Positions 3,586 to 57,072 of a DNA stretch of 64,000 bases are shown in pieces. The stretch covers positions 69,759-133,758 of the forward strand of contig JAIETW010000002.1 in assembly GCA_019744845.1 (NCBI GenBank), written 5' to 3'. This stretch comes from Patescibacteria group bacterium (lineage in GTDB: Bacteria > Patescibacteriota > Minisyncoccia > Phycocordibacterales > Phycocordibacteraceae). Position 1 is the stretch's first letter. The number at the start of each line of letters is the position of its first letter. The notes beneath the pieces are model-generated. The model had not been told where the DNA came from, did not search any database, and saw only the letters and a list, made by a program, of their open reading frames with translations. The translations under genes were made by a program, and so were the position numbers.

Positions 3586-4811
3586 CACCTGAACTTAGAA
3601 ATCTTGGCATAGGAATTCTCTTGCTCGTTGCCATTTTTGGCGGGTCCTACGCGTACGAGACTGCATTGTTTGGTCTTCTTCCACGCTCTCTTGAGCAACA
3701 TGCAACGGCGGTTATTTCTACCTGTGCATCAGAGTCATACCCGCCAAGTTGCTACGATCTGGAAATACCAAAACTCATGGATCAAGGTCTTTCAATGGAA
3801 GAAACTTTTGAGGTGACGAGATTGATACAGAACCAAGTTGATAACTACTTCTATTGTCACGTGCTTGGTCATAACGTGTCGGCAAAAGAGACCGCCAAGG
3901 ACCCACTCGCATGGACGGACGTGGTGGCCCGATGTCCGACTGGCATGTGTAGCAATGGATGCCTTCACGGTGCCGCACAGGAACGCTTTCGCGACGATGC
4001 ACTCACCGATGCGGAGATTCAGGAATTGATTCCTGAATTGAGTCAGATTTGTGAGCCAGGCAGTGGTCGTGATTTTACTGGTCTTGAACAGGCGAGTTGC
4101 TATCACTCACTTGGTCATCTCACCATGTACATAGGTGGAGGAAATATCACCACAGCGGTCGGCGTGTGTGATCAGATCGCAGTGAAAGATACGCATGACT
4201 ATACGCAGACCTGTTACGAGGGTGCATACATGCAGATCTTCCAACCACTTGAGCCGGAAGATTTTGCGCTCGTACAAGATGTCCCCGCAACGACGACCGT
4301 AGATGCCAAGGTGTTTTGTGATGGATTCAGCGGAGAACGTCGTGCCGCTTGTCACCGAGAGTCATGGCCTCTCTACCGAGACTCATTCTCTGAACCAGGA
4401 GGTATTGAAACCTTCTGTACGCTCGTTCCTGACCGAGTCTCACAGCAACGTTGTTACAATGCCATCTTCTATGTCCTGACCGCACAGTATTCATTTGACG
4501 AAGAGAAGGTCACGAATATGTGCGAGAGTGTGCCGGAAAAGCGCATGGGGCAGTGTTTTGGAAATGCAGCCTCACGAATGGTGGAGACCGATTATCGGTT
4601 GACGCCCAACGCCGTGCGTATCTGTGAGCGCGCACAAGAGCACGGAGTAGGTGATAGATGCTACGAGGAACTTGTGTTCTACTCCACGTTTAATTTTCAC
4701 GAAGGTTCAGAGGCGTTCCTCACACTTTGCCGCTCGCTTCCTGAGCCATGGCAGACGCAATGTGTAAACGGAGAGGGGAAGACGTTTCAGCCAAGTAAGA
4801 ACGATTATTAA
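3582..4811 (+). CDS. Exported Cys/His-rich protein, paralog 4 (divergent: CHVLGH ... GCLHGAAQERF ... CYHSLGHLTMY)
   Basis: N-terminal anchor (LGIGILLLVAIFGG). Retains the H-x-x-G-H and C-x-H-x-x-G-H modules of the family; 409 aa. Confidence 0.6.
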   Translation: MTPELRNLGIGILLLVAIFGGSYAYETALFGLLPRSLEQHATAVISTCASESYPPSCYDLEIPKLMDQGLSMEETFEVTRLIQNQVDNYFYCHVLGHNVSAKETAKDPLAWTDVVARCPTGMCSNGCLHGAAQERFRDDALTDAEIQELIPELSQICEPGSGRDFTGLEQASCYHSLGHLTMYIGGGNITTAVGVCDQIAVKDTHDYTQTCYEGAYMQIFQPLEPEDFALVQDVPATTTVDAKVFCDGFSGERRAACHRESWPLYRDSFSEPGGIETFCTLVPDRVSQQRCYNAIFYVLTAQYSFDEEKVTNMCESVPEKRMGQCFGNAASRMVETDYRLTPNAVRICERAQEHGVGDRCYEELVFYSTFNFHEGSEAFLTLCRSLPEPWQTQCVNGEGKTFQPSKNDY

Positions 4812-38434: not shown

Positions 38435-38462
38435 CACCCGCGTCTAGCGGGTGTGTCTTTTA
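38435..38462. terminator. Hairpin terminator between convergent genes, possibly bidirectional
   Basis: CACCCGC-GTCTA-GCGGGTG stem-loop followed by TGTCTTTT. Confidence 0.55.
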
Positions 38463-39245
38463 ACTCTCTACGTCAATTCGTGCGGAGTCGTCGTTGTTGC
38501 GTTCGTTAGACTCAGTGATGGCATCGTTGTAGTCAACCTCAATCTCAATGACTCGGTTACGTCCTTCGTCTGGATCATCAAAGCCGATGGTAAAAATCTT
38601 AGAAGCGCCCGGGACTAGAGAAGACTGCCATGCGGACGTGTAGACATCATCATCGTTATCCTGGGTAGGGAGCTCTGCGCGGAAGCGCCAGAGGCCAGAA
38701 ACGTTAGTGCCGATATTGCGTACGGTAAAGCGGAAGGCACCACGCTCACCCTCAGGCACCTCGTCATCTTCGCGGAAAGAGGAGGCAGAAGAGGTGCGAA
38801 GGTATCCGACCTCAATAATTTCTACGGTGAGGTCAGGAAGACCGTAGTTGGAAGGAGTGCGAGGATAGTTGTAGTAGTACGTTGGGTACTGAACGATATT
38901 GGGCCCGCCCGTTGATGGGGGAAGAGTAGTTGGCGTTGTAGGAGTCGTGGTTGCGACAGGGGTGGTCGTTGCAGGAACTGGAACAAACACGGTTACAGTC
39001 GTGGTTGCAGGGCGGGTACCAGTGGTCGTTGCAGGCTCATTCGTTGGTTCAGACGAAAGATATACCGCAGAGGTGAGGCGAGAGATCGTGTCTGGTACAA
39101 AACGTGCGCCGTAAATGGCGAGCATGATGCCAAGGAAGACGAGTGCAAGAAAACCAACAACGGCAAGACCGTTTACGGCAGCGCGCTTTGCGGCCTGCTT
39201 TGTATCAGTTTCCTCTACGTGTGCGTCGTGATGTGGCGCGTTCAT
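38460..39245 (-). CDS. Membrane-anchored protein with Thr/Pro-rich linker and C-terminal globular domain
   Basis: Start placed at the internal ATG; the track ORF opens with TTG at 39326. TM helix LAVVGFLALVFLGIMLAIY, a TTTPVATTTPTTPTT linker, and a ~150-aa C-terminal domain. Confidence 0.55.
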   Translation of the reverse strand: MNAPHHDAHVEETDTKQAAKRAAVNGLAVVGFLALVFLGIMLAIYGARFVPDTISRLTSAVYLSSEPTNEPATTTGTRPATTTVTVFVPVPATTTPVATTTPTTPTTLPPSTGGPNIVQYPTYYYNYPRTPSNYGLPDLTVEIIEVGYLRTSSASSFREDDEVPEGERGAFRFTVRNIGTNVSGLWRFRAELPTQDNDDDVYTSAWQSSLVPGASKIFTIGFDDPDEGRNRVIEIEVDYNDAITESNERNNDDSARIDVES

Positions 39246-39319
39246 TAAAGAGCAAGTTACCACACGAATTTGATTTGTCAATAGCACCCTCAGACTAGGC
39301 AGGCTATCCCCAGAAGAGC

Positions 39320-39348
39320 TTGACAATGCTATGTTTTATGCGTATAAT
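39320..39348 (+). promoter_or_regulatory. Consensus sigma70-type promoter (TTGACA-17 nt-TATAAT) placed 11 nt upstream of the sortase ATG with no Shine-Dalgarno; implies a leaderless/near-leaderless mRNA
   Basis: Perfect -35 and -10 hexamers with a 17-nt spacer, read directly from the sequence. The -10 ends at 39348 and the ATG is at 39360. Confidence 0.5.
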
Positions 39349-39359
39349 CATTTTTAATT

Positions 39360-40013
39360 ATGGCCACCCTCGCAAAACAGGTGATCAAGGCCGCACGCCG
39401 CGCATACGCAAAGAAGTATGTCTTCCTTGGCGTATACTCATTCGTACTCTTTTTTGCACTCGTGATGCTTCAGGAACTTGGCGTCGCACCGTATCAGCTC
39501 GTGGATGCACGTGGCATGGCACCGATTGTGATTGATCGCAGTGAAGAAATTCGCGTTCCTGCAGATGCGGTAGGACAGAAGCCACTTCGCATTGAGATCC
39601 CAAAGGTAGGCATTGAGGCGTCAGTAAACAATCCTGAGTCTACGGATATCGCGGTCCTTGATGACGCGCTCCTTTCGGGCACCGTTCGTTACCCCACCTC
39701 CGCTACTCTTGGTGAAGAGGGGAATGTGGTGATTTTCGGCCATTCAAGTCACCTCCCTGTGGTACACAATCAGGCATTTAAGGCCTTTAACGACATTGAA
39801 AAGCTCGTAGAAGGGGACACGATTATTGTCTATGGTGAGACCTATCGTTATATCTACGCGGTAGAAACGGTAGAGCAAGCAGACGCCAACTCTGACCTCA
39901 TCCCCCTTGCGGTGGAGGGCTCAAAACTGACCCTTTCTACTTGTGACACCTTCCGGGCGAAGAGTGCTCGGTTCGTAGTTACTGCCACGCTCGTCCTCAC
40001 GGAGGCCGTTTGA
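39360..40013 (+). CDS. Sortase-family transpeptidase
   Basis: N-terminal TM. Conserved His in VVIFGHSSH, a catalytic Cys in LTLSTCDTF (the TLxTC motif), and Arg shortly after (RAKSAR). Confidence 0.75.
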   Translation: MATLAKQVIKAARRAYAKKYVFLGVYSFVLFFALVMLQELGVAPYQLVDARGMAPIVIDRSEEIRVPADAVGQKPLRIEIPKVGIEASVNNPESTDIAVLDDALLSGTVRYPTSATLGEEGNVVIFGHSSHLPVVHNQAFKAFNDIEKLVEGDTIIVYGETYRYIYAVETVEQADANSDLIPLAVEGSKLTLSTCDTFRAKSARFVVTATLVLTEAV

Positions 40014-40984
40014 CGGAGCGGAGGAAGAGGTATACTTATCACACAAGCTTAAAATTTATACTTATGTCATCAGGACACGGAGCAGGAGGAGATCGGGTAC
40101 CACGTGAGTGGTCTACACAGAACATCAATCACAACGAACGTGGTGATGGCAGCTACGACACCAATATCACGTATGAACGTGGAGGAGGTGATGATGGCCA
40201 CGGAGGAGGACATAAAGAAAGTGGTCTTAAGACCGCGCTTGCCTGGGTAGGTGGTGCGGTTGTCGTGGTCGGCCTTCTTGGTGCTGCAGCAGCCGGAGGC
40301 TGGTTCGCACGTCCTGCAGGAACTAATGCGGCGGTAGAGGATGCGCGTGGTGACCGTGGGCAGACCCGTCGTGAAGATCCTGCCGCTGGAGGTGCTGAAG
40401 ACGGAGATGAAGATGCTGAAGAGGTGCCAGAGGTTGAGGTTTCCATGAGTGGAGAGCGTGTCCGCCTCGCACTTGAAGGACTTGATCCAGGAGAGGAGGT
40501 AACTGTAATAGTGGTTTCTGAAGGCTCGGAGAGCGAAGTGTGTCCGCTTGAGGGAGGTTGCGGGCAGCTTGAAGATTTTGCCGGTGATGTCCGCGCACGC
40601 ACTCGCGACGAGGTTATGGCAATGCTTACCCGCCCAAATCGTCAACCTCGTCTTACACGCGAAGAAGCGGAGCGACAGGACGCTTATCTCGCCGTAGAAT
40701 CCATGCGTCTTGGGGGTGCCATCATTACTCTCACCGCAGATAATGAAGGCCAGCTCTCAATTCCTGCCACGATTACAGTAGATCGTGGAGACGAGTCTGA
40801 AGCGGAAATTATTCACGTGAATGATCGCGCTTCTGTTCGTGTCATGGTCCCGCTTGATGTACGTGTGGATGGTAACCAGGAAATCACTACCACCATCCCG
40901 TACAGTGTTATGTTGGGTGGCACCTACCCCCAGGGAGCACTGCTCCGTATCCGTCGGGATGGAACGGTCAACGTTGAGCGCTAA
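40010..40984 (+). CDS. Membrane-anchored acidic protein with His/Gly-rich N-terminus
   Basis: GHGAGG ... DDGHGGGHKESG, then a TM helix (LAWVGGAVVVVGLLGAAAAGGW) and an acidic ectodomain. Start overlaps the sortase stop. Confidence 0.5.
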   Translation: MTERRKRYTYHTSLKFILMSSGHGAGGDRVPREWSTQNINHNERGDGSYDTNITYERGGGDDGHGGGHKESGLKTALAWVGGAVVVVGLLGAAAAGGWFARPAGTNAAVEDARGDRGQTRREDPAAGGAEDGDEDAEEVPEVEVSMSGERVRLALEGLDPGEEVTVIVVSEGSESEVCPLEGGCGQLEDFAGDVRARTRDEVMAMLTRPNRQPRLTREEAERQDAYLAVESMRLGGAIITLTADNEGQLSIPATITVDRGDESEAEIIHVNDRASVRVMVPLDVRVDGNQEITTTIPYSVMLGGTYPQGALLRIRRDGTVNVER

Positions 40985-41045
40985 AACAACAAATTAGGTC
41001 CGAAATGGAGAAAAGCACCCTTGACGGGGTGCTTTTTGCATGTGC

Positions 41046-41074
41046 TTGACAAATATGTTGCTATGTGCTAGGAT
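41046..41074 (+). promoter_or_regulatory. Candidate sigma70-like promoter (TTGACA-17-TAGGAT) upstream of 41144
   Basis: Exact -35 hexamer and a 4/6 -10 hexamer at 17-nt spacing in a 160-nt AT-richer intergenic region. Confidence 0.35.
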
Positions 41075-41143
41075 ACTCTTAACTATGGAGGAACTCCGTA
41101 GGGGGCCAAAAAACCAATTAATTACTTATTTATCAAACATTCT

Positions 41144-42556
41144 ATGACTATCACGAACCGTGTGCTCTCCGTGCTTCTCGTGCCGGTATTTGTGGTTACG
41201 GCGTTTGCATTCGCAACGCCAGTGCTTGCCGATGACGGCTACAGTGCGCCAGGACAGGCGTGGGCAGGAAGCCCAACGACCAGCTCTAAGCCTCGTACGT
41301 CTTCTGTGCCTACGTATTACGGCGGAAGCTCAAGTGGTAAAAAGCCTACCTCTTCCTACTGTTACACCTGTGGTGGCGGTGGATACAGTAACTATGGCTC
41401 CCTCTCTTCTACGCGCTCCCTCTATCTCTCCCTCGACTTCTCTCGCAATGACATTGATCAGAGCGTAGACAACAGCATCACGAACAACGTGAACGTGAAC
41501 GGTAACAACAACAACGTTGGTATCAACAACAGCCAGGAGACTAATCAGAATGCAGGTATTACCACGAGCCGTGGATACTACGAGCACTCTGATCGCAGCT
41601 CCTACTACGACTACTTCCGTCGCTTCAACAGCTCTTCAAGCTACAACAGCAACTCAAGTGGGGACGCAGGTCAGACCAACAACACGCACCAGTCAAACAT
41701 CTTTAACAGCAACAAGAACAATGATGATGATGACGATGATGACAACGATAACGATGATCTATGGTGTGAAATTGATGCCTCTGATACCTCAGTAGACGAA
41801 GGCGATCGTATCACTCTTGAATGGGATACTCGCGGTGCAGAAGATGCTCGTATCAACCAGGGTATTGGTTCAGTAGATGAGGACGGTGGTACCGAACGTG
41901 TTGAGATTGACCGCACCACGACCTTCCGCCTTACGGTTGAAGACGAGGATGGTGATGAAGAGGATTGTTCAGTCACGGTGCGTGTGAACGACGAAAATGA
42001 GTTCTCTAACATCGTGATTGATGAGGAGCCAACCTACGTTCCTCCTCAGTATTACTCCGGTGTGTACCTCTCAGATATTCCGTACACCGGTCTTGATATG
42101 GGTCCTTACGCATGGGCATACTGGGCAGCCCTTGCTGCTCTCGGTGCCGCAGGAACCTACGTGTTCTTCTTCATGGGCCTTCCGTTCGTCCTCCGTCGTG
42201 CAGGTGCACTCAGTGAGGAAGTAGAGGCAGAGCTCTCTGAAGAGAATGCATCACCGGTTCAGCAGTCAACGATGACCATGCCGGTAGCAGCCACTTCAAC
42301 GGGAACCGCCGTCATTGCCTCTCAGTCAGATATTACGAAGTTCGTTGCCGCACTTCTTTCAGCCGACAACGACACTGCCTCTGATATCCTTGAGGACGCA
42401 ACGAAGGATGGTGCAAGTGCCTCAGTGTTCCTTAACCGCGCAAGCGCAATGCTTCGCTCTGAGGTAGCCGCCCCTACGATTGCCGCAGGAATTGATACTT
42501 CAGTTCTTGAAGCCCTTGTAGATTCTCTTGAGGCAGCAGCAAAGGCCCGCGCCTAA
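41144..42556 (+). CDS. Secreted low-complexity (Asn/Ser/Asp-rich) protein with acidic beta-rich module, internal IPYTG-hydrophobic-RR segment and C-terminal helical tail
   Basis: Signal peptide. Asn/Ser-rich low complexity, with one Cys in the Gly-rich YCYTCGGGG stretch. NNDDDDDDDNDNDD. A ~75-aa module like those in 19638 and 23563. DIPYTGLD + 30 hydrophobic aa + RR, then ~130 further aa. Confidence 0.55.
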   Translation: MTITNRVLSVLLVPVFVVTAFAFATPVLADDGYSAPGQAWAGSPTTSSKPRTSSVPTYYGGSSSGKKPTSSYCYTCGGGGYSNYGSLSSTRSLYLSLDFSRNDIDQSVDNSITNNVNVNGNNNNVGINNSQETNQNAGITTSRGYYEHSDRSSYYDYFRRFNSSSSYNSNSSGDAGQTNNTHQSNIFNSNKNNDDDDDDDNDNDDLWCEIDASDTSVDEGDRITLEWDTRGAEDARINQGIGSVDEDGGTERVEIDRTTTFRLTVEDEDGDEEDCSVTVRVNDENEFSNIVIDEEPTYVPPQYYSGVYLSDIPYTGLDMGPYAWAYWAALAALGAAGTYVFFFMGLPFVLRRAGALSEEVEAELSEENASPVQQSTMTMPVAATSTGTAVIASQSDITKFVAALLSADNDTASDILEDATKDGASASVFLNRASAMLRSEVAAPTIAAGIDTSVLEALVDSLEAAAKARA

Positions 42557-42577
42557 GCCAGGCCTCACATAAGAAAA

Positions 42578-42605
42578 CGCCCCCACCCGGGGGCGTTTTC
42601 TTTTT
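42578..42605 (+). terminator. Rho-independent terminator
   Basis: CGCCCCC-ACCC-GGGGGCG stem followed by TTTTCTTTTT. Confidence 0.65.
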
Positions 42606-42632
42606 GCCTATGCCAAGTACAATAGACGCATT

Positions 42633-42908
42633 ATGAGTGCCCTTGTTCTTTATTGGATTCTTCTCCTTGTCTGGGTTGCGGTCGTTGCCTACTTCATTGT
42701 CTTTGACCTCTTTCCGCTTCTCTTTGGGCATGGCCATGGAAAGAAGGAGCATGGAGGAGGGCATGGTCACGGACATGATGACCATGCGCCAGAGGCATCA
42801 AGTGGCTACTCAGTCTATAGCGGCTTCAAATCCTTTGCTGATAAGGATGGGAAACTTACCCCAAACGATATTGTGAAAGGACTTTCTCGGGAAGAGAAGG
42901 ACATATGA
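42633..42908 (+). CDS. Small membrane protein with His/Gly-rich metal-binding-like tract
   Basis: Two TM helices, then GHGHGKKEHGGGHGHGHDDH. Begins 25 nt after the terminator. Confidence 0.5.
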   Translation: MSALVLYWILLLVWVAVVAYFIVFDLFPLLFGHGHGKKEHGGGHGHGHDDHAPEASSGYSVYSGFKSFADKDGKLTPNDIVKGLSREEKDI

Positions 42909-43603
42909 GTTCTAGGGGAACACCAGCTGAAGTGCCGGCACCGGCACGTTCAAAAGGAGAGAGGCTCAGAGAGGCAGAACGGGATCCGCGCCTTGAGCGT
43001 CGGCGATTTGTACTTTCTCGCGTGCCAGAACTTCGTGAGAGAATCTTTCATCTCCAGAAAGTGTTTTCTGATCTCCAGAAAGAACATCCCGAATTGGTTG
43101 GTCTTTCACTCTATGGATCGCATACGAAAGGATATGCAGATTTTCTTTCTGATATTGATGGCGTCGTGTTTGTTGATTTTGACGAAGCGCAGAAGCGAGG
43201 GACAGATAAGCTTGAGCTTCGGCGCCTGGTACAGGAAACAGTACGGAAAGAATTAGGGCTCACTTCTGAACATGTTTCCATAGATGCTGTTAGTATTTCT
43301 CTTCAAAACAATAGTGTTACTACGCTCCGGACTCCGCGCCTCTTCCATCTCGCGATTGGTGACAAGCTGCGTCCATACCGTGACGCAGCTATCCGGTCCT
43401 ACGAAGAGAAAGGCGAAGAAGGAGAGAGGGAATGGGCACGTCTCGTATTTGAACTTGTGCTCCATGAGAATCACACTTTCTCTGACGAGTTTGTAGAGAA
43501 GCGTCTACACCTCTATCCGTGGTCGCTCAAGAAGGCGCGAGCGTATTATGCACCGGAGCGAGGAAGCGACTACACAGAATCTTCCGTAGAGGATTCCGCA
43601 TAA
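42905..43603 (+). CDS. Minimal nucleotidyltransferase (Pol-beta superfamily) domain protein, tandem paralog 1
   Basis: LSLYGSHTKGYADFLSDIDGVVFVD matches the G-S-x(9-13)-D-x-D NTase motif, followed by a helical C-terminal domain. Clear paralog of the next gene. Confidence 0.65.
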   Translation: MSSRGTPAEVPAPARSKGERLREAERDPRLERRRFVLSRVPELRERIFHLQKVFSDLQKEHPELVGLSLYGSHTKGYADFLSDIDGVVFVDFDEAQKRGTDKLELRRLVQETVRKELGLTSEHVSIDAVSISLQNNSVTTLRTPRLFHLAIGDKLRPYRDAAIRSYEEKGEEGEREWARLVFELVLHENHTFSDEFVEKRLHLYPWSLKKARAYYAPERGSDYTESSVEDSA

Positions 43604-43606
43604 AAT

Positions 43607-44248
43607 ATGGCTGACGAGGGGATGCGTAAGTTTGAGCGAATAGACGCGATAGAGAACGATACACGTCTGGTGCATCACCGATTCCTTCTTTCTGAAGACC
43701 CTGCACTCCGGGAGAAGCTCCGTATACTGCAAGATTCGTTCAAGCAACTTCAATCCAAATTTCCTGAGATCATCAGTCTACAAGTATTTGGATCACACAC
43801 GAAAGGGTATGCCTCCCCTGATTCGGATTTTGACTTAGGGCTGGCGCTAGATTCAAATAAACTTGAGGCAGCAAAACGTACTAGCGTTCAAGTGTCTAGC
43901 GAAGTGCGGAATTATTTGCATACAAAGCTTAGCGTGAACAAAAGAGATATCGCTCTTGAGTACTACGAACTCGGTGGACCAGAAAGTTACGCGCGGTATG
44001 AACCCTTTCTATTATCCCTCGGTAACGGGATGCGCCCGTATCGTGAGGCGATTATCCGGAAGCTTGAACAGCAGCCTGACGGTGAACGGGTATGGATGCA
44101 CATCGTCGGACAGCTATGGGAGCGAGAAAATCTCTATTTCAGTGCTGCGCTCTTACGTGAGCGAAAGAAGCTATACCCACAGACGCTCGCTGAGGCGCGT
44201 GCGTACTTTCTTCCCGAACCGAAGCAAGAGACTACGAGCGATTCCTAA
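43607..44248 (+). CDS. Minimal nucleotidyltransferase domain protein, tandem paralog 2
   Basis: LQVFGSHTKGYASPDSDFDLGLALD. Shares RPYRxAxIR ... LYP ... ARAY blocks with paralog 1. Confidence 0.65.
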   Translation: MADEGMRKFERIDAIENDTRLVHHRFLLSEDPALREKLRILQDSFKQLQSKFPEIISLQVFGSHTKGYASPDSDFDLGLALDSNKLEAAKRTSVQVSSEVRNYLHTKLSVNKRDIALEYYELGGPESYARYEPFLLSLGNGMRPYREAIIRKLEQQPDGERVWMHIVGQLWERENLYFSAALLRERKKLYPQTLAEARAYFLPEPKQETTSDS

Positions 44249-45977
44249 TCTCGTCGGTAAGGCGTGCAGCGAATGCCTCTACTGCTTCTGCGGCCTCTGA
44301 CTTTCCGTGGTCACGGCTCTCTACAGAAACCGTTCCATCGGTTACTTCCTTTTCTCCAACCACAAGAAGGTACGGAATCTTCTTCTCCTTGGCAGCACGG
44401 ATCTTCTTTCCGAGAGATTCGTTTGCGGCGTCTACTTCTACGCGAATACCGCCCGTCTTAAGAATCTTCTCCACTTCCGATGCATACTGATTGAACTTCT
44501 CTGACACAGGGAGAATGCGGGCCTGCACCGGGGAGAGCCAGGTAGGGAAGGCGCCTGCGTAGTGTTCCATGAGAATGCCCATGAAGCGGTCGGGGGACCC
44601 CACGAGCGCACGATGAATCATGCTTGGGGTCTTCTTATTTCCATCCTCTGCAATGTAGGAAAGTCCAAAGCGTGCAGGCTGGTTGAAATCAAGCTGAATG
44701 GTAGAGATCTGCCACTCACGCTTTAGCGCGTCCACTGCCATGATATCTATCTTTGGCCCATAGAAGGCTGCTTCGCCTAGTGCTTCTTTGTGTGGAATCT
44801 TCTGTGACACAAGGAGGTTGCGCATAATACCTTCTGCCTTCTCCCAAATTGCGTCCTCGCCGAGATACTTTTCCTTCTTTGCGGGATCGCGAAGGGAGAG
44901 ACGCATCCAGTAATCAATCTTATATACGGCAAGTGCTTTCTGGATTGCCTTCAATACGTTTGAGATCTCTGACTCTATTTGATCCTCACGGCAGAAGATG
45001 TGGCCATCGTCCTGGGAGAATGCGCGAAGGCGAGTGAGGCCAGAGAGTTCTCCTGGACGCTCATCACGGTAGAGCACGGCGAAGTCTGCGTAACGAATAG
45101 GGAGGTCACGGTAACTACGAAGTTCGCTGTCAAAGATCTGCGTGTGCTGCGGACAGTTCATGGGCTTTAGGAACATCTCATCGTCCACGTACTGACTCTT
45201 CGCCTGGAGCATGTCTTCTTTGTACTGATCGTAGTGTCCAGAGATCTTGAAGAGCTCACCTTTGTTGATGTTGGGGGTATGCACCTCACCAAAGCCAAGT
45301 TCGGCATTGAGCTCACGAGAGAACCTAATGATTTCTGAGCGGATGATATTGCCCTTAGGGGTAAATAGGGGCATACCGGAGCCCACAAGATCCGAGAACA
45401 CCAAGAGTCCCTGCTCTCGTGCGATCTTACGGTGGTCACGCTTCTTCGCCTCCTCTCGGTTTGCGATGTACTCGTCTAACTCTTCCTTCGTATCAAAGGC
45501 AAGGCCGTAGATACGAGTGAGCATCGTATTCTTCTCATCGCCACGCCAGTACGCGCCTGCAATGCGATCTAGCTTAAAAGAGTCAGGAGCTATTTCATGC
45601 GCAGGATTTTCACAGTGTCCACCACGACAGAGATCCCAATACTCACCAGACTTGTAGAAGGAGAGAGTGCCACCATCTTTTGAAAACTCATCTATGAGTT
45701 CGTGCTTGTAGGGGTTTTGAGGGTACTCTGCCTTTGCATCCTCTGGAGAAAGTTCGTGACGATCCATAGAGGTCCAGGACGGAAGGATGCGACGCATCTG
45801 CTTTTCAATCTTCTCTAGATCCTTCTCGTTGATTGGAGTAGGGAACTCAAAGTCAAAGTAGAAGCCGTCATCAATGGCCGGACCAATAGTGCGCTTGGCA
45901 TCAGGACGTACGGTAAGTACCGCAGCGGCAAGAAGGTGGGCGAGCGTATGGCGTTTATGTTCTAGGTCCTGGTTCAT
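44232..45977 (-). CDS. thrS: Threonine--tRNA ligase (lacks N-terminal TGS domain)
   Basis: HxxxH/RDHRKI editing-domain remnant, class II motifs, and a C-terminal anticodon-binding domain (PYLLVVGEKE); 581 aa. Confidence 0.93.
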   Translation of the reverse strand: MNQDLEHKRHTLAHLLAAAVLTVRPDAKRTIGPAIDDGFYFDFEFPTPINEKDLEKIEKQMRRILPSWTSMDRHELSPEDAKAEYPQNPYKHELIDEFSKDGGTLSFYKSGEYWDLCRGGHCENPAHEIAPDSFKLDRIAGAYWRGDEKNTMLTRIYGLAFDTKEELDEYIANREEAKKRDHRKIAREQGLLVFSDLVGSGMPLFTPKGNIIRSEIIRFSRELNAELGFGEVHTPNINKGELFKISGHYDQYKEDMLQAKSQYVDDEMFLKPMNCPQHTQIFDSELRSYRDLPIRYADFAVLYRDERPGELSGLTRLRAFSQDDGHIFCREDQIESEISNVLKAIQKALAVYKIDYWMRLSLRDPAKKEKYLGEDAIWEKAEGIMRNLLVSQKIPHKEALGEAAFYGPKIDIMAVDALKREWQISTIQLDFNQPARFGLSYIAEDGNKKTPSMIHRALVGSPDRFMGILMEHYAGAFPTWLSPVQARILPVSEKFNQYASEVEKILKTGGIRVEVDAANESLGKKIRAAKEKKIPYLLVVGEKEVTDGTVSVESRDHGKSEAAEAVEAFAARLTDEIRNRS

Positions 45978-50614: not shown

Positions 50615-51514
50615 ATGGCCAATCGGCATCTCGCGCGTTCTCTTGTCCTTCAGTCCCTCTTTGAGTGGGATACGGCAGGTGTGCCTGTAGCGGAGGTGAA
50701 GAACATCCTTGCGCGTAACACCCGTGAGTTTGGAGGGGATGATACTGAAGGGCCATTTATGGAATCTCTCCTTGAAGGCGTGCTCGCAAAGCACGACGAT
50801 CTAGATTTGATTATTCAGAAGGCGGCACCCGACTGGCCGTTGAATCGCATTGCACCGATTGACCGAAACATTCTTCGGTTGGGACTCTATGAGCTTTTGT
50901 TTGCGGACCGTGACCAGGTACCACCGAAGGTGGCAATCAACGAAGCAATTGAGCTTGCAAAGATCTTTGGCGGGGAATCGTCAGGACGTTTTATTAACGG
51001 CGTGCTCGGTGCCGTGTACAAGGAGATGGGTGAGCCAGGAAAGGAAGATGGCGCTAAGAAGAAGGAGCGGATAGATCCGCGCACGCTTCCGGTGGAAGAA
51101 CTTGCAGGTGCGATCGTGTACGCGCCACACGAGGGTCAGTGCTACGTGGCACTGGTGCATGACGTCTTTGGACGCTGGACTCTGTCTAAGGGGCACATCA
51201 ATGAAGAAGAGACTCCGCAGCAGGGTGTGATTCGTGTGATTCAGGAGGAGCTTGGACTCACCGGTACGGTAGAAGAAGTGGTGGGAGAGAACGAATACAT
51301 CGCCTCACACCCTGAGAAAGGGAAGGTCCGTAAGCACGTGTACTTCTTTTTGGTAAAGACCGAGTTCTCAAAACTCTCTTTGAAGCAGAGTGGAGGCCTT
51401 GATGATGCCCGCTGGTTCCGGCTTGCGGATATTCGGGCCCTTAACTTCTACGACGACATGCTCCCAATCGTCACCTCGGCCGTCCAAAAGCTCCTTGATA
51501 AGGCTTTGAAGTAG
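50615..51514 (+). CDS. nusB: NusB (transcription antitermination) fused to C-terminal NUDIX hydrolase domain
   Basis: The first ~140 aa are NusB-like (LVLQSLFEWD ... LAKIFGGESSGRFINGVLG). The C-terminus has the Nudix box GHINEEETPQQGVIRVIQEELGL (G-x5-E-x7-REUxEExGU). Confidence 0.8.
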   Translation: MANRHLARSLVLQSLFEWDTAGVPVAEVKNILARNTREFGGDDTEGPFMESLLEGVLAKHDDLDLIIQKAAPDWPLNRIAPIDRNILRLGLYELLFADRDQVPPKVAINEAIELAKIFGGESSGRFINGVLGAVYKEMGEPGKEDGAKKKERIDPRTLPVEELAGAIVYAPHEGQCYVALVHDVFGRWTLSKGHINEEETPQQGVIRVIQEELGLTGTVEEVVGENEYIASHPEKGKVRKHVYFFLVKTEFSKLSLKQSGGLDDARWFRLADIRALNFYDDMLPIVTSAVQKLLDKALK

Positions 51515-53751: not shown

Positions 53752-54462
53752 TCAATTCTCTCGCTTTGTGCCAATAAGCACTTTGCGAAGGAGGGGGCTC
53801 ATGAGTCCAACCAGTAAACCAAGCAACAAAAGCCCCACAAAACGTCCCAATATCATAACGGCTTTTCCCGCTTCGGTTGCAGGCTCGGAATACGGCACGT
53901 CTCCAAGAATGATCAGAAGCGACCAGAACATGCCAGACGGTATGTCGTGTGCACTTGATCCAGCACCCTCGAATATATAGAGCAAGGTGCCTAGCAACAA
54001 AAGCGCTATGAGCATAGCGACAAAATAAATTTGAATATTCACGATATAGAGCGAACGTTCTCCGTGATGCTGTTCTATTCTGGCAACCTTTGCGAGCCGT
54101 ATCATCCTTAGGAGGCGAAGAATACGGAGTGCGCGTGTCGTTTTAAGAAACGTAAAGTTCCCAAGCGCAAGGAGTGAAGGAAGAATAGCCAACAAGTCTA
54201 TAATGCCGAAGAAGCTGAAGATGTATCGGAACTTGGCACGTGCGATATAGACACGCGCACCATATTCCGTAAGAAAACATACGACACTTATCCATTCAAT
54301 TGCTTTGAAGATTGCATGATACTCACTCAGTGACGGCACTGTCTCAAGAACAAGGGCAAGAACGGAGGCGATTGTGAGAAACGCCAGAAAGTCGTTAACG
54401 ATGATGAAAAGTCGTGATTGTGGATTTTCAAGTGCGTTGCGAAGTGCGTTCCCAGAGTTCAT
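53752..54462 (-). CDS. Voltage-gated ion channel family protein (single 6-TM-like unit, S4-type voltage sensor)
   Basis: S4-like RALRILRLLRMIRLAKVAR with Arg at every third position, preceded by ~3 TM helices and followed by a pore-like segment and TM (SLLIILGDVPYSE). Confidence 0.7.
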   Translation of the reverse strand: MNSGNALRNALENPQSRLFIIVNDFLAFLTIASVLALVLETVPSLSEYHAIFKAIEWISVVCFLTEYGARVYIARAKFRYIFSFFGIIDLLAILPSLLALGNFTFLKTTRALRILRLLRMIRLAKVARIEQHHGERSLYIVNIQIYFVAMLIALLLLGTLLYIFEGAGSSAHDIPSGMFWSLLIILGDVPYSEPATEAGKAVMILGRFVGLLLLGLLVGLMSPLLRKVLIGTKREN

Positions 54463-54882: not shown

Positions 54883-57072
54883 ATGTTGAAGCGACTAGAA
54901 ATCGCCGGATTCAAATCATTCGCGAAGAAAACTTCGCTTGATTTCTCGTCGTCGGTAACCGCAATTGTGGGCCCAAACGGTTCTGGTAAATCAAACGTCG
55001 CTGAAGCCTTTCGTTTTGCACTTGGTGAGCAGTCTATGAAAAGCATGCGTGGAAAGCGCAGTGAGGATCTTATCTGGAGCGGGTCTAACACCTCTCCTCG
55101 TTCTAACCGCGCGTCTGTTGCGGTGGTGTTTGATAACCGAAAGAAGATTTTCCCAAAGATGGAGTTTGATGAGGTGTCTATTGAGCGCGCCGTATTCCGC
55201 GATGGTGCGAGCGAATATTCAGTGAACGGATCTAAAGTACGCCTTCGTGATGTGCAGGAACTCCTTGCAAGCGCCAACATTGGTGACACGGGGCACCACA
55301 TCATTTCGCAAGGAGAAGCAGATCGTATTCTTCTCTCTGCACCTCGCGAACGTCGTGCCATGCTTGAGGATGCACTTGGTCTTCGTGTCTTTGAATTTAA
55401 GAAACAAGAGGCAGAGAAGAAGCTTGAGAAGACGGAAGAGAATGTAAAGCAAGTGGAGGCACTTCGTCGGGAGATTCTTCCGCATATTAAATTCCTTTCA
55501 AAGCAGGTGGAGAAGCTGGAGCGTGCAGAAGAACTCATTAAAGAGCTCACCGCTGCCGCGCGTGAATACTTTGCAATAGAAGAGCTCTACATTCGCTCAG
55601 AGAAAGCGACGTCTACCACGCGTCTTAAAGATGCGACAGAGCGTCTTGCAACTGTGTCTGCAGAACTCGCACCACTCCAAGACCGTGCCGCTATGGATTC
55701 TGAGGGAATGAAGCGTGCAGAAGCCGTACGGAATGCTGAGCGTGAGCTTGATCGTGCACTTGGGGAACACGCCACACTGTCTCGTGAGATTGGACGCATA
55801 GAGGGTGCACTTGAAGGAGCACGTAAGCGCGCAGACGCTGCTGCGCAAGAGCCATACGTGAAGGTATCTCGTGAAGACCTGTCTGCATTGAAGAGTGAAG
55901 TAGAGGCACAGACACGCATTGGAGATGGGAGCCCTGAAGCGATTCGTGCTGCCTTCATGGCCATTAAGTCTGCCCTCACAGCGTTCTTTGACCGCTTTGC
56001 AGGAGGAAGTGAGCGAATGGCGGAAGAAGAGCGTGAAGTGTATGCGCTAGAAGAAGAGAGGAAGAATCTCGTGGCGCGTGAAGAAGAACTTGCTGCTGCG
56101 TCTGAGAAAGCTCGCCACGCGCTCGTTCGTGCACGTGAAGAGTCTGCTGCGCACGAGGAGACCGGACGTGAGAATCAGTATCGTGTGCTTGATATGGCAG
56201 AAGCTAAAGCACGGGAGGAAGCAACGGTCGCTCGAGAAGAGGGTCGCCAGCGTGAACTCGCTATGCTTGCAGAAGAGCTTGAGCGTGACCGTGCGGAAGT
56301 CATGGCGCTTGCAGGCACTGCGGCACTTTCATACGCGCCCCTGTCTTCACTTCCAGAGGAAGAACGTCGTGTGCAGGAAGATCGTAAGCGCAGTATGGAG
56401 CGTCTTAAGATTCGCGTAGAAGAAGCGGGAGGAACCGGAGAGGACGTGCGTGCTGAATACAATGACGCGACTGAACGTGAGCAGTTCCTTACCCGTGAGC
56501 TTGAGGATCTTGCGAAGTCTGCCGAAGGACTCCGTGCTCTTATCAGTGATCTTGATGAGGAGCTTGGAAAGACTTTTGCGGAAGGGCTTGCCAAGGTGAA
56601 CGCATCGTTCACTGAATTCTTTGCAATTATGTTCGGAGGAGGAAGTGCACGTTTGATACTTGAAGAACCAGAGGAACCAGATGAGGAGGATGAAGAAGGA
56701 GTAGTACGCGAAGGGAAGCCAGGCATTGAAATTGCAGTGAATCTTCCAAAGAAGCGGGTGCAGGCACTCATGCAGCTTTCTGGAGGAGAGCGTGCCTTGA
56801 CCAGCATCGCGCTTATCTTTGCGATGAGTCAGGTGAATCCGCCCCCATTCCTTATTCTTGATGAAACGGATGCCGCACTTGATGAGGCGAACTCTCGCCG
56901 CTATGGCGACATGATTGAAGGACTGGCGAAGAAATCACAGCTCGTCGTCATTACCCACAATCGTGAGACCATGAGCCGTGCAGGTATACTCTACGGAGTC
57001 ACCATGGGAAATGATGGAATTAGTAAGTTGTTATCCGTTAAATTTGAAGAAGCGATGATGGTCGCTAAATAG
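54883..57072 (+). CDS. SMC-family chromosome-associated ATPase, unusually short and without an obvious hinge
   Basis: N-terminal AIVGPNGSGKSNVAEAFRFALGEQS (Walker A, SMC N-terminus), a long Ala/Glu/Arg coiled coil, a C-terminal signature LSGGERALTSIALIFAM, and Walker B ILDETDAALD. Confidence 0.8.
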   Translation: MLKRLEIAGFKSFAKKTSLDFSSSVTAIVGPNGSGKSNVAEAFRFALGEQSMKSMRGKRSEDLIWSGSNTSPRSNRASVAVVFDNRKKIFPKMEFDEVSIERAVFRDGASEYSVNGSKVRLRDVQELLASANIGDTGHHIISQGEADRILLSAPRERRAMLEDALGLRVFEFKKQEAEKKLEKTEENVKQVEALRREILPHIKFLSKQVEKLERAEELIKELTAAAREYFAIEELYIRSEKATSTTRLKDATERLATVSAELAPLQDRAAMDSEGMKRAEAVRNAERELDRALGEHATLSREIGRIEGALEGARKRADAAAQEPYVKVSREDLSALKSEVEAQTRIGDGSPEAIRAAFMAIKSALTAFFDRFAGGSERMAEEEREVYALEEERKNLVAREEELAAASEKARHALVRAREESAAHEETGRENQYRVLDMAEAKAREEATVAREEGRQRELAMLAEELERDRAEVMALAGTAALSYAPLSSLPEEERRVQEDRKRSMERLKIRVEEAGGTGEDVRAEYNDATEREQFLTRELEDLAKSAEGLRALISDLDEELGKTFAEGLAKVNASFTEFFAIMFGGGSARLILEEPEEPDEEDEEGVVREGKPGIEIAVNLPKKRVQALMQLSGGERALTSIALIFAMSQVNPPPFLILDETDAALDEANSRRYGDMIEGLAKKSQLVVITHNRETMSRAGILYGVTMGNDGISKLLSVKFEEAMMVAK

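Follow-up and report, generated by a model that had tools for sequence, protein, structure and literature searches.

A 64,000-nucleotide stretch of a Patescibacteria group bacterium genome (assembly GCA_019744845.1, contig JAIETW010000002.1, positions 69,759 to 133,758 of the forward strand; hereafter the window) encodes two adjacent paralogous proteins, A and B, which are members of the Pol-beta-like nucleotidyltransferase (NTase) superfamily. Within it they form an undescribed, unnamed and largely Patescibacteria-restricted family that belongs to no named family. We tentatively read both as stand-alone Pol-beta-type O-nucleotidyltransferases whose acceptor is most likely not nucleic acid. 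The two open reading frames (ORFs) and their catalytic motifs lie as follows.

42905–43603, plus strand: NTase paralogue A (ORF A, P0005), 232 amino acids
43115–43159, plus strand: catalytic motif of A, G71–D85 (GSHTKGYADFLSDID), with the triphosphate-binding G-S and the metal-binding D83/D85 pair
43607–44248, plus strand: NTase paralogue B (ORF B, P0001), 213 amino acids
43790–43834, plus strand: catalytic motif of B, G62–D76 (GSHTKGYASPDSDFD)

The paralogy of A and B is far above chance, because BLASTP aligns them with 34% identity over 211 positions (E = 1e-35). An initial annotation, made from the sequence alone, had placed ORFs of 232 and 213 amino acids here, assigned both a Pol-beta NTase motif and put their identity by eye at around 35–40%; the ORFs and the motif were borne out, with the catalytic Asp pair intact, and the estimate of identity was close. 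The motif string reads LSLYGSHTKGYADFLSDID in ORF A and LQVFGSHTKGYASPDSDFD in ORF B, both conforming to G-S-H-T-K-G-Y-A-x3-S-D-[IF]-D, and the superfamily pattern h-G-[GS]-x(9-13)-D-h-[DE]-h is satisfied by the motif segments of A and B listed above. The strings RPYR[DE]A[AI]IR, LYP and ARAY recur in the C-terminal part of both proteins. ORF B scores above the Pfam gathering cut-offs for NTP_transf_2 (27.1 versus 21), Polbeta (27.2 versus 26.9) and MTPAP-like_central (29.3 versus 27). ORF A by itself lies under the Pfam cut-off (18.7 versus 21), with its homology to B at E = 1e-35. In a 71-sequence alignment the columns G71, S72, G76, S82, D83 and D85 (A numbering) are invariant or near-invariant, and ORF A retains every residue that is invariant or highly conserved in the family. 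Because all of these residues are kept, neither protein is a pseudo-enzyme and both are, judged by their residues, apparently active NTases. On strand 3 a carboxylate is present in each (E118 in B, the aligned Asp in A).

AlphaFold2 models of A and B, made with the family alignment, were confident (predicted local distance difference test scores of 91.1 for A and 95.7 for B) and had a topology common to both. Three helices open the chain; strand 1 and the G-S loop come next, then strand 2 bearing D-x-D, and two further helices lead to strand 3, from which a short linker runs to the four C-terminal helices. In the B model G62-S63 follows strand E55–61, and D74/D76 stand at the start of strand E75–82. 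The helical C-terminal region that had been ascribed to both proteins in the initial annotation was seen in the models. When the models were compared with the PDB by Foldseek, the MNT antitoxins of HEPN–MNT systems ranked first for both, with 7ae2 and 7ae9 at E = 2.6e-4 to 4.6e-4 and a probability of 1.00. The template modelling (TM) score of these matches was 0.49–0.51 when normalised to the target and about 0.35 when normalised to the query, and the match therefore covers the core only. The next matches of the A model were the antibiotic NTases AadA, AAD(9) and LinB (232–261 columns, E = 3e-3 to 9e-3, TM 0.25–0.32), and a search of the viral fold collection BFVD returned nothing above TM 0.35. 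In these models, A and B consist of an MNT-like core, an N-terminal helical segment and a family-specific C-terminal four-helix region.

Sequence profiles likewise placed the MNT/MntA antitoxins of type VII HEPN–MNT toxin–antitoxin systems (7ae2, 7ae9, 5yep, 6m6u) nearest to A and B. The likeness includes the G-S-x(9-10)-S-D-x-D motif with a conserved acid about six residues past the second Asp, the helix before strand 1 and the alpha/beta core. However, A and B are about twice as long as these proteins, with an extra conserved N-terminal segment as well as the C-terminal four-helix region, so that the term 'minimal' used for them in the initial annotation does not fit. The NCBIfam equivalog model NF047752 has a cut-off of 60 bits and gives 21.2 bits for A and 29.0 for B. 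Nor are the two genes arranged as a toxin–antitoxin pair: their neighbours are a membrane-protein gene and thrS, with no adjoining HEPN/HepT toxin carrying an Rx4-6H motif. A hidden partner was rejected, as nine alternative-frame or overlapping ORFs in 42477–44300 have no Pfam match at E <= 1, and no HEPN gene was found near about 15 relatives, all in keeping with the earlier statement that no operon with a HEPN partner is obvious. Aligned with hhalign to DUF86/HEPN alignments from real MNT–HEPN loci, both the C-terminal region and the whole family gave probabilities of at most 0.2%.

Word-indexed searches of 5.8 billion proteins returned only four relatives for B and three for A, from Patescibacteria metagenome-assembled genomes (MAGs) and annotated as 'nucleotidyltransferase domain-containing' or 'hypothetical'. 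When 1.84 billion cluster representatives were searched exhaustively with a profile, a family emerged, with 819 members at E <= 1e-3, of which 376 remained at a threshold of 1e-10 and 49 at one of 1e-30. The matches are mostly full length (positions ~4–210) and the proteins 210–260 amino acids long, and the named members come from Patescibacteria, Candidatus Sungbacteria/Sungiibacteriota, Levybacteria/Levyibacteriota, the Parcubacteria group and Paceibacterota. A scan of genome contigs with a degenerate motif proved too promiscuous, yielding 120 loci that were mostly unrelated MNT-type NTases; the only true family members among them were L017, L027, L053, L111 and, weakly, L122, the last in a Saccharibacteria MAG. 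L111 (contig CAZOQS010000001.1, 517 kb) encodes a clear member, at 193 bits, in a record labelled 'uncultured Gammaproteobacteria'; this points either to a wrong bin label or to a family that is not found strictly within the candidate phyla radiation (CPR). A literature search on nucleotidyltransferases and Patescibacteria found nothing on this family.

Residue conservation was measured over 70 family members, in B numbering. G62, S63, G67, S73, D74, F134 and R146 are invariant, D76 is conserved in 97%, and R25, F26, P53, K66, G159, W163, E174, Y190 and P191 are, like D76, conserved in at least 90%. An acid (D or E) occupies the position of D82, which ends strand 2, in 62 of the 70. Matches to the NTase clan of Pfam occur in 62–63 members and cover the catalytic core only, as do the matches among PDB sequences; PF22600 (MTPAP-like_central), the palm domain of non-canonical poly(A) polymerases, matches 50. 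The isoelectric point (pI) of the family is mildly acidic, with a median of 6.4. For the C-terminal 85 residues, a profile built from 28 segments found nothing credible in Pfam or among PDB sequences, the best PDB match being a septin at E = 0.18, and a known domain in this half was rejected. Members with extensions include P0066, P0051, P0098 and P0128; among them are rare fusions, to an HD-domain region in P0066 and to HExxH-motif regions, one of which (P0051) matches DUF5700, a putative zinc peptidase. The NTase domain is not duplicated in any of 26 long members.

The genes around A and B complete what looks, from features of the DNA, like a three-gene operon.

42575–42605, plus strand: intrinsic terminator hairpin, 3' of a gene for a 470-amino-acid surface protein and at the 5' boundary of the three-gene unit
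42633–42908, plus strand: gene for a small single-pass membrane protein, 91 amino acids
44232–45977, minus strand: thrS, convergent to ORF B

We propose that the membrane-protein gene, A and B form one transcription unit because of the upstream terminator, the ATGA overlap between the stop of the membrane-protein gene and the start of ORF A, and the ribosome-binding sites. The terminator has a 14-bp GC-rich stem and a 4-nt loop followed by a U-run, and its RNA folds at −25.4 kcal/mol (z = −6.8), with none of 200 shuffled sequences as stable. ORF B has its own ribosome-binding site, GAGGA. Between ORFs A and B lie only TAA and one further codon; the 3' end of ORF B shares 17 bp with that of thrS. 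At 43601–43609 ORFs A and B share a reading frame, as they do in the closest relative, L001 (8679–8699); this layout probably survives from the tandem duplication. At 42618–42635 a TACAAT box ends 9 nt 5' of the membrane-protein ATG, with no Shine–Dalgarno sequence and no call by a consensus promoter scan, which suggests a leaderless or near-leaderless transcript for that gene. In the membrane protein itself, which includes HGHGKKEHGGGHGHGHDDH, a single hydrophobic helix at the N-terminus precedes a His/Gly-rich linker. The initial annotation had described a His-rich membrane protein upstream of the NTases: the gene is indeed there, but the His-rich stretch is unconserved among the orthologues aligned or detected (L001, L004, L005, L017 and L135/L136), and it is the C-terminal tail, GF.S...K.GKL...DIVKGLS.E, that is conserved. 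The dN/dS (nonsynonymous to synonymous substitution) ratio of this gene is 0.036.

The placement of A and B between a sortase locus and thrS, already recorded in the initial annotation, was correct. The slot between the small membrane-protein gene and thrS was compared in related genomes, here with the identity of thrS to that of the window.

L001: thrS 96%; slot with A and B
L136: thrS 82%; slot with no NTase, the membrane-protein gene being followed directly by thrS
L017: thrS 77%; slot with one NTase, nearer A (51% to A, 41% to B)
L004: thrS 75%; slot with one NTase, B-type (62% to B, 36% to A)
L005: slot with one NTase, B-like

All three genes of the unit are present in L001. In L135/L136 the membrane-protein gene (4001–4270) stands without an NTase and thrS follows at 4267 on the minus strand, leaving the slot empty. 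As the same slot carries zero, one or two copies across related genomes, A and B are accessory genes in this lineage. A-type and B-type sequences fall into separate clades, both in a neighbour-joining tree and in the identity matrix, and occur as single copies in related genomes; on this sequence comparison the duplication is old, predating the compared lineages, with the copies lost differentially. The tandem duplication claimed in the initial annotation was therefore not a recent local event. No third family member was found within the window.

Both copies are under purifying selection, with dN/dS against their L001 orthologues of 0.105 for A and 0.077 for B. Their dN of 0.12–0.16 is three to eight times that of thrS, the sortase gene, rnhB and the small membrane-protein gene. 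Between A and B, identity is 40–50% in the N-terminal helices, catalytic strands and C-terminal helices but only 5% in residues 83–124 and 17% in residues 125–142. Because the duplication is old and the divergence is focused on residues 83–142, A and B probably differ in acceptor or regulation, and substrate diversification between them is plausible.

Across about 15 distinct contexts, those of more distant members included, no conserved partner gene was found. At L128 (3701–6941), L133 (3561–6006) and L140 (81–2005) a gene for TGT (tRNA-guanine transglycosylase) lies immediately downstream of the family NTase. The NTases at these three loci are only 36–47% identical to one another. Two of the three have a Mur ligase gene immediately upstream, and L128 also has MurL further upstream; the shared order is either a case of deep synteny or the mark of a functional connection with tRNA or cell-wall chemistry. 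NUDIX genes were seen near other members, three flanking the NTase at L111 (1041–3369) and one directly upstream at L137 (4257–5687). With a phosphate as acceptor, the enzyme would yield an NDP-X compound, a NUDIX substrate. Genes for TrpRS and TyrRS were also among the neighbours of relatives, as were peptidase_M15 and YkuD genes, a solute-binding protein, ung with a PD-(D/E)xK nuclease, and an integrase/resolvase region. On mobile DNA, tblastn against 72,556 plasmids and 50,697 phages found no relative, and none was confirmed in IMG/VR; a mobile resistance gene was accordingly rejected.

On our tentative reading, A and B work most like a stand-alone O-nucleotidyltransferase of the MNT/ANT type, where ANT denotes the aminoglycoside nucleotidyltransferases and their kin. 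The nucleotide transferred would probably be AMP from ATP. A small-molecule acceptor is slightly favoured over a protein side chain because A and B have their own helical domain in an ANT-like plan and a mildly acidic pI, and because the copies are accessory, fast-evolving and gained or lost with no conserved partner gene. In the mechanism that we propose (residues of B), an NTP-Mg2+ complex, most likely of ATP, would be bound in the core, with the G-S loop holding the triphosphate and the D74/D76 pair the Mg2+, possibly helped by D82, the conserved acid that ends the D-x-D strand. The nucleoside monophosphate would then be moved onto an acceptor hydroxyl, the acceptor being held against the C-terminal helical region (R146, W163, E174 and Y190-P191) and positioned also by the N-terminal R25-F26. 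ANT enzymes use general bases, and by analogy with them E174 is a candidate general base. Seen directly were the paralogy of A and B and their intact motifs, the modelled fold, the extent of the family, synteny with a copy number that varies, purifying selection and the absence of known partners; the identity of the nucleotide, the class of the acceptor, the role of E174 and any functional split between A and B are what we infer.

Several observations weigh against this reading. The top sequence and fold matches, MntA and MNT, are protein AMPylases and not small-molecule enzymes. TM scores to the two-domain ANTs reach only 0.25–0.32, and AadA, AAD(9) and LinB are absent from the top 50 Foldseek matches of the B model. 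The PF22600 matches and the neighbouring tRNA genes (TGT and aminoacyl-tRNA synthetases) would fit an RNA substrate, and the rare HD and HExxH peptidase-like fusions hint at a protein-directed or reversible modification. The column aligned with the third catalytic carboxylate on strand 3 holds D or E in only 11 of the 70 members, although D82 may substitute for it. Finally, the family is distributed widely and vertically over CPR phyla, a pattern more easily explained by a conserved physiological role than by a classic resistance gene.

The likeliest of the alternatives, though still unlikely, is that A and B are MntA-like protein AMPylases that act as a regulatory switch on Tyr, Ser or Thr of a protein not encoded next door; candidate targets would be each other, the cytoplasmic tail of the co-transcribed membrane protein, or their own near-invariant Y190. 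The top PDB profile match is MntA (5yep, E = 1.8e-5), followed by the MNT 7ae2 (8e-5), MNT antitoxins lead the Foldseek lists of both models, MntA_antitoxin is the best NCBIfam match, the fusions to an HD domain recall GlnD and those to HExxH/DUF5700 regions are peptidase-like, and the start of ORF A overlaps the membrane-protein stop. However, the NF047752 scores fall far under the cut-off, HEPN/HepT genes and HEPN-like C-terminal regions are missing as described above, the membrane protein occurs in L135/L136 where no NTase follows it, and it does not accompany most members of the family. A doubtful alternative is that A and B are RNA 3'-end NTases, a compact bacterial analogue of the non-canonical poly(A)/poly(U) polymerases that would tail or repair tRNA or small RNAs. 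PF22600 is the best Pfam match of ORF B (E = 1e-6, above the gathering score, if marginally as a palm match), GLD-2, Cid1 and TUT4/7 are among the PDB matches by both sequence and fold and align over the helix–strand–GS–strand–DxD segment, and tRNA-related neighbours are frequent, from thrS here to the TGT-linked NTases of three relatives and the TrpRS/TyrRS genes. Yet A and B are much smaller than these polymerases, with TM scores of 0.2–0.3 to TUTases and GLD-2; neither a PAP-associated/central domain (0 of the 70 members has the former) nor another RNA-binding domain is present; the acidic pI is unlike that of typical RNA- or DNA-binding polymerases; and translation genes are so dense in CPR genomes that adjacency to them is weak evidence.

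Antibiotic modification of the ANT(4')/ANT(9)/Lnu type, with aminoglycoside or lincosamide resistance and the two copies covering different drugs, appears improbable. A and B do share with AadA/ANT(3'')(9), AAD(9), LinB/Lnu(B) and ANT(4')/KNTase an overall plan in which about 210–290 amino acids make up a Pol-beta NTase domain at the N-terminus and a helical domain after it, and the FGSHTKG...SDFD motif of a window protein resembles YGSFTKG...SDIE of LinB, a profile match of the core motif only (E = 3.7e-5). The near-full-length Foldseek alignments of AadA, AAD(9) and LinB to A, the acidic pI, the copy-number variation and fast evolution, and the concentration of A/B divergence in residues 83–142 would also fit. 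Against this, the NCBIfam ANT models score 11–13 bits against cut-offs of 340–350 (ANT_4p_II, 13.3 versus 350; ANT_9, 11.5 versus 340), more than 300 bits short, and no Lnu model gives a match at E <= 1. For the C-terminal region, neither Pfam nor PDB offered a match to any known ANT C-terminal domain, the low TM scores and the lack of any ANT in the top 50 for B count here too, and the genes are not on mobile elements but in an essentially Patescibacteria-confined family spread over CPR phyla with core genes in several neighbourhoods. The likeness to antibiotic NTases drawn in the initial annotation is weakly supported, by the LinB core motif and the long alignments to A; MNT/MntA are nearest, and resistance is not specifically supported. 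We consider very improbable, and largely refuted, an anti-phage signalling or guard module in which a nucleotide signal from the NTase, in the style of a CBASS CD-NTase or of Hailong HalB, controls the membrane protein as effector. In Hailong the membrane protein HalA is followed by the HalB NTase of about 220 amino acids (PMC13434031), an order that the window locus resembles, and there are weak PADLOC/NCBIfam matches to PDC-S09 and CBASS cyclase models. However, homology to HalB (9dbj, 9dbh) is limited to the GS–D superfamily motif (E = 0.39), the PADLOC cyclase match (E = 0.007) concerns A only, CBASS_cyclase_b reaches 13 bits against a cut-off of 200, and no CBASS effector or Cap genes were found beside A and B. 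The membrane protein is tiny (79–91 amino acids, single-pass), and in L135/L136 its gene persists in the absence of the NTase, a state that a Hailong-type guard system would make lethal. Most members of the family lack a neighbouring membrane-protein gene, mobile elements carry no relatives, and the locus lies in syntenic core DNA and not in a defence island. Both a Hailong-like system and CBASS or any other PADLOC-listed defence system were rejected, the latter having only weak sub-threshold matches. We also give little credence to a Patescibacteria-specific class of two-domain NTase with a new helical domain for binding the acceptor, in which an A/B heterodimer, coupled to the membrane protein, would inactivate or sense host- or neighbour-derived compounds at the envelope of an episymbiont, the birth-and-death of A and B copies then tracking host chemistry; Rosetta-stone support for such a heterodimer was rejected on finding no double-domain protein among the long members. 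Of housekeeping placements, none with GlnE, GlnD or CCA-adding enzymes emerged, and overall the earlier interpretation is partly supported.

Elsewhere in the window, envelope-protein genes lie on both sides of the sortase gene (39360–40013) within 38460–42556: a CARDB-domain protein with a Thr/Pro-rich linker (38460–39326, minus strand), an envelope protein with a His/Gly run (40010–40984) and an Asn/Asp/Ser-rich envelope protein that contains a poly-Asp tract and a hydrophobic segment at its C-terminus (41144–42556), the last two with no Pfam match. A single ORF of 299 amino acids at 50615–51514 joins a NusB domain (E = 4e-33) to a C-terminal NUDIX domain (E = 4e-13), a fusion likewise called in L001 and L004. 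Between 53000 and 55000 the GC content drops to 0.45–0.46, against about 0.51 in the rest of the window; this stretch holds a gene for a 236-amino-acid Ion_trans-family channel protein (53752–54462, minus strand), adjoining that for a 729-amino-acid SMC_N/AAA protein (54883–57072).

Patescibacteria have tiny genomes, with much lineage-specific gene content that has no assigned function. A and B represent an uncharacterised family in a very large, well-known superfamily, and show signs neither of a new mechanism nor of a recognisable resistance or defence system. The family is a tractable target, being compact, confidently modelled and represented by hundreds of cluster representatives over several CPR phyla, with N- and C-terminal parts that have no counterpart in Pfam or PDB. 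Identification of its acceptor would extend the Pol-beta NTase superfamily by a new branch and could reveal a CPR-specific modification chemistry in detoxification, regulation or RNA/tRNA processing.

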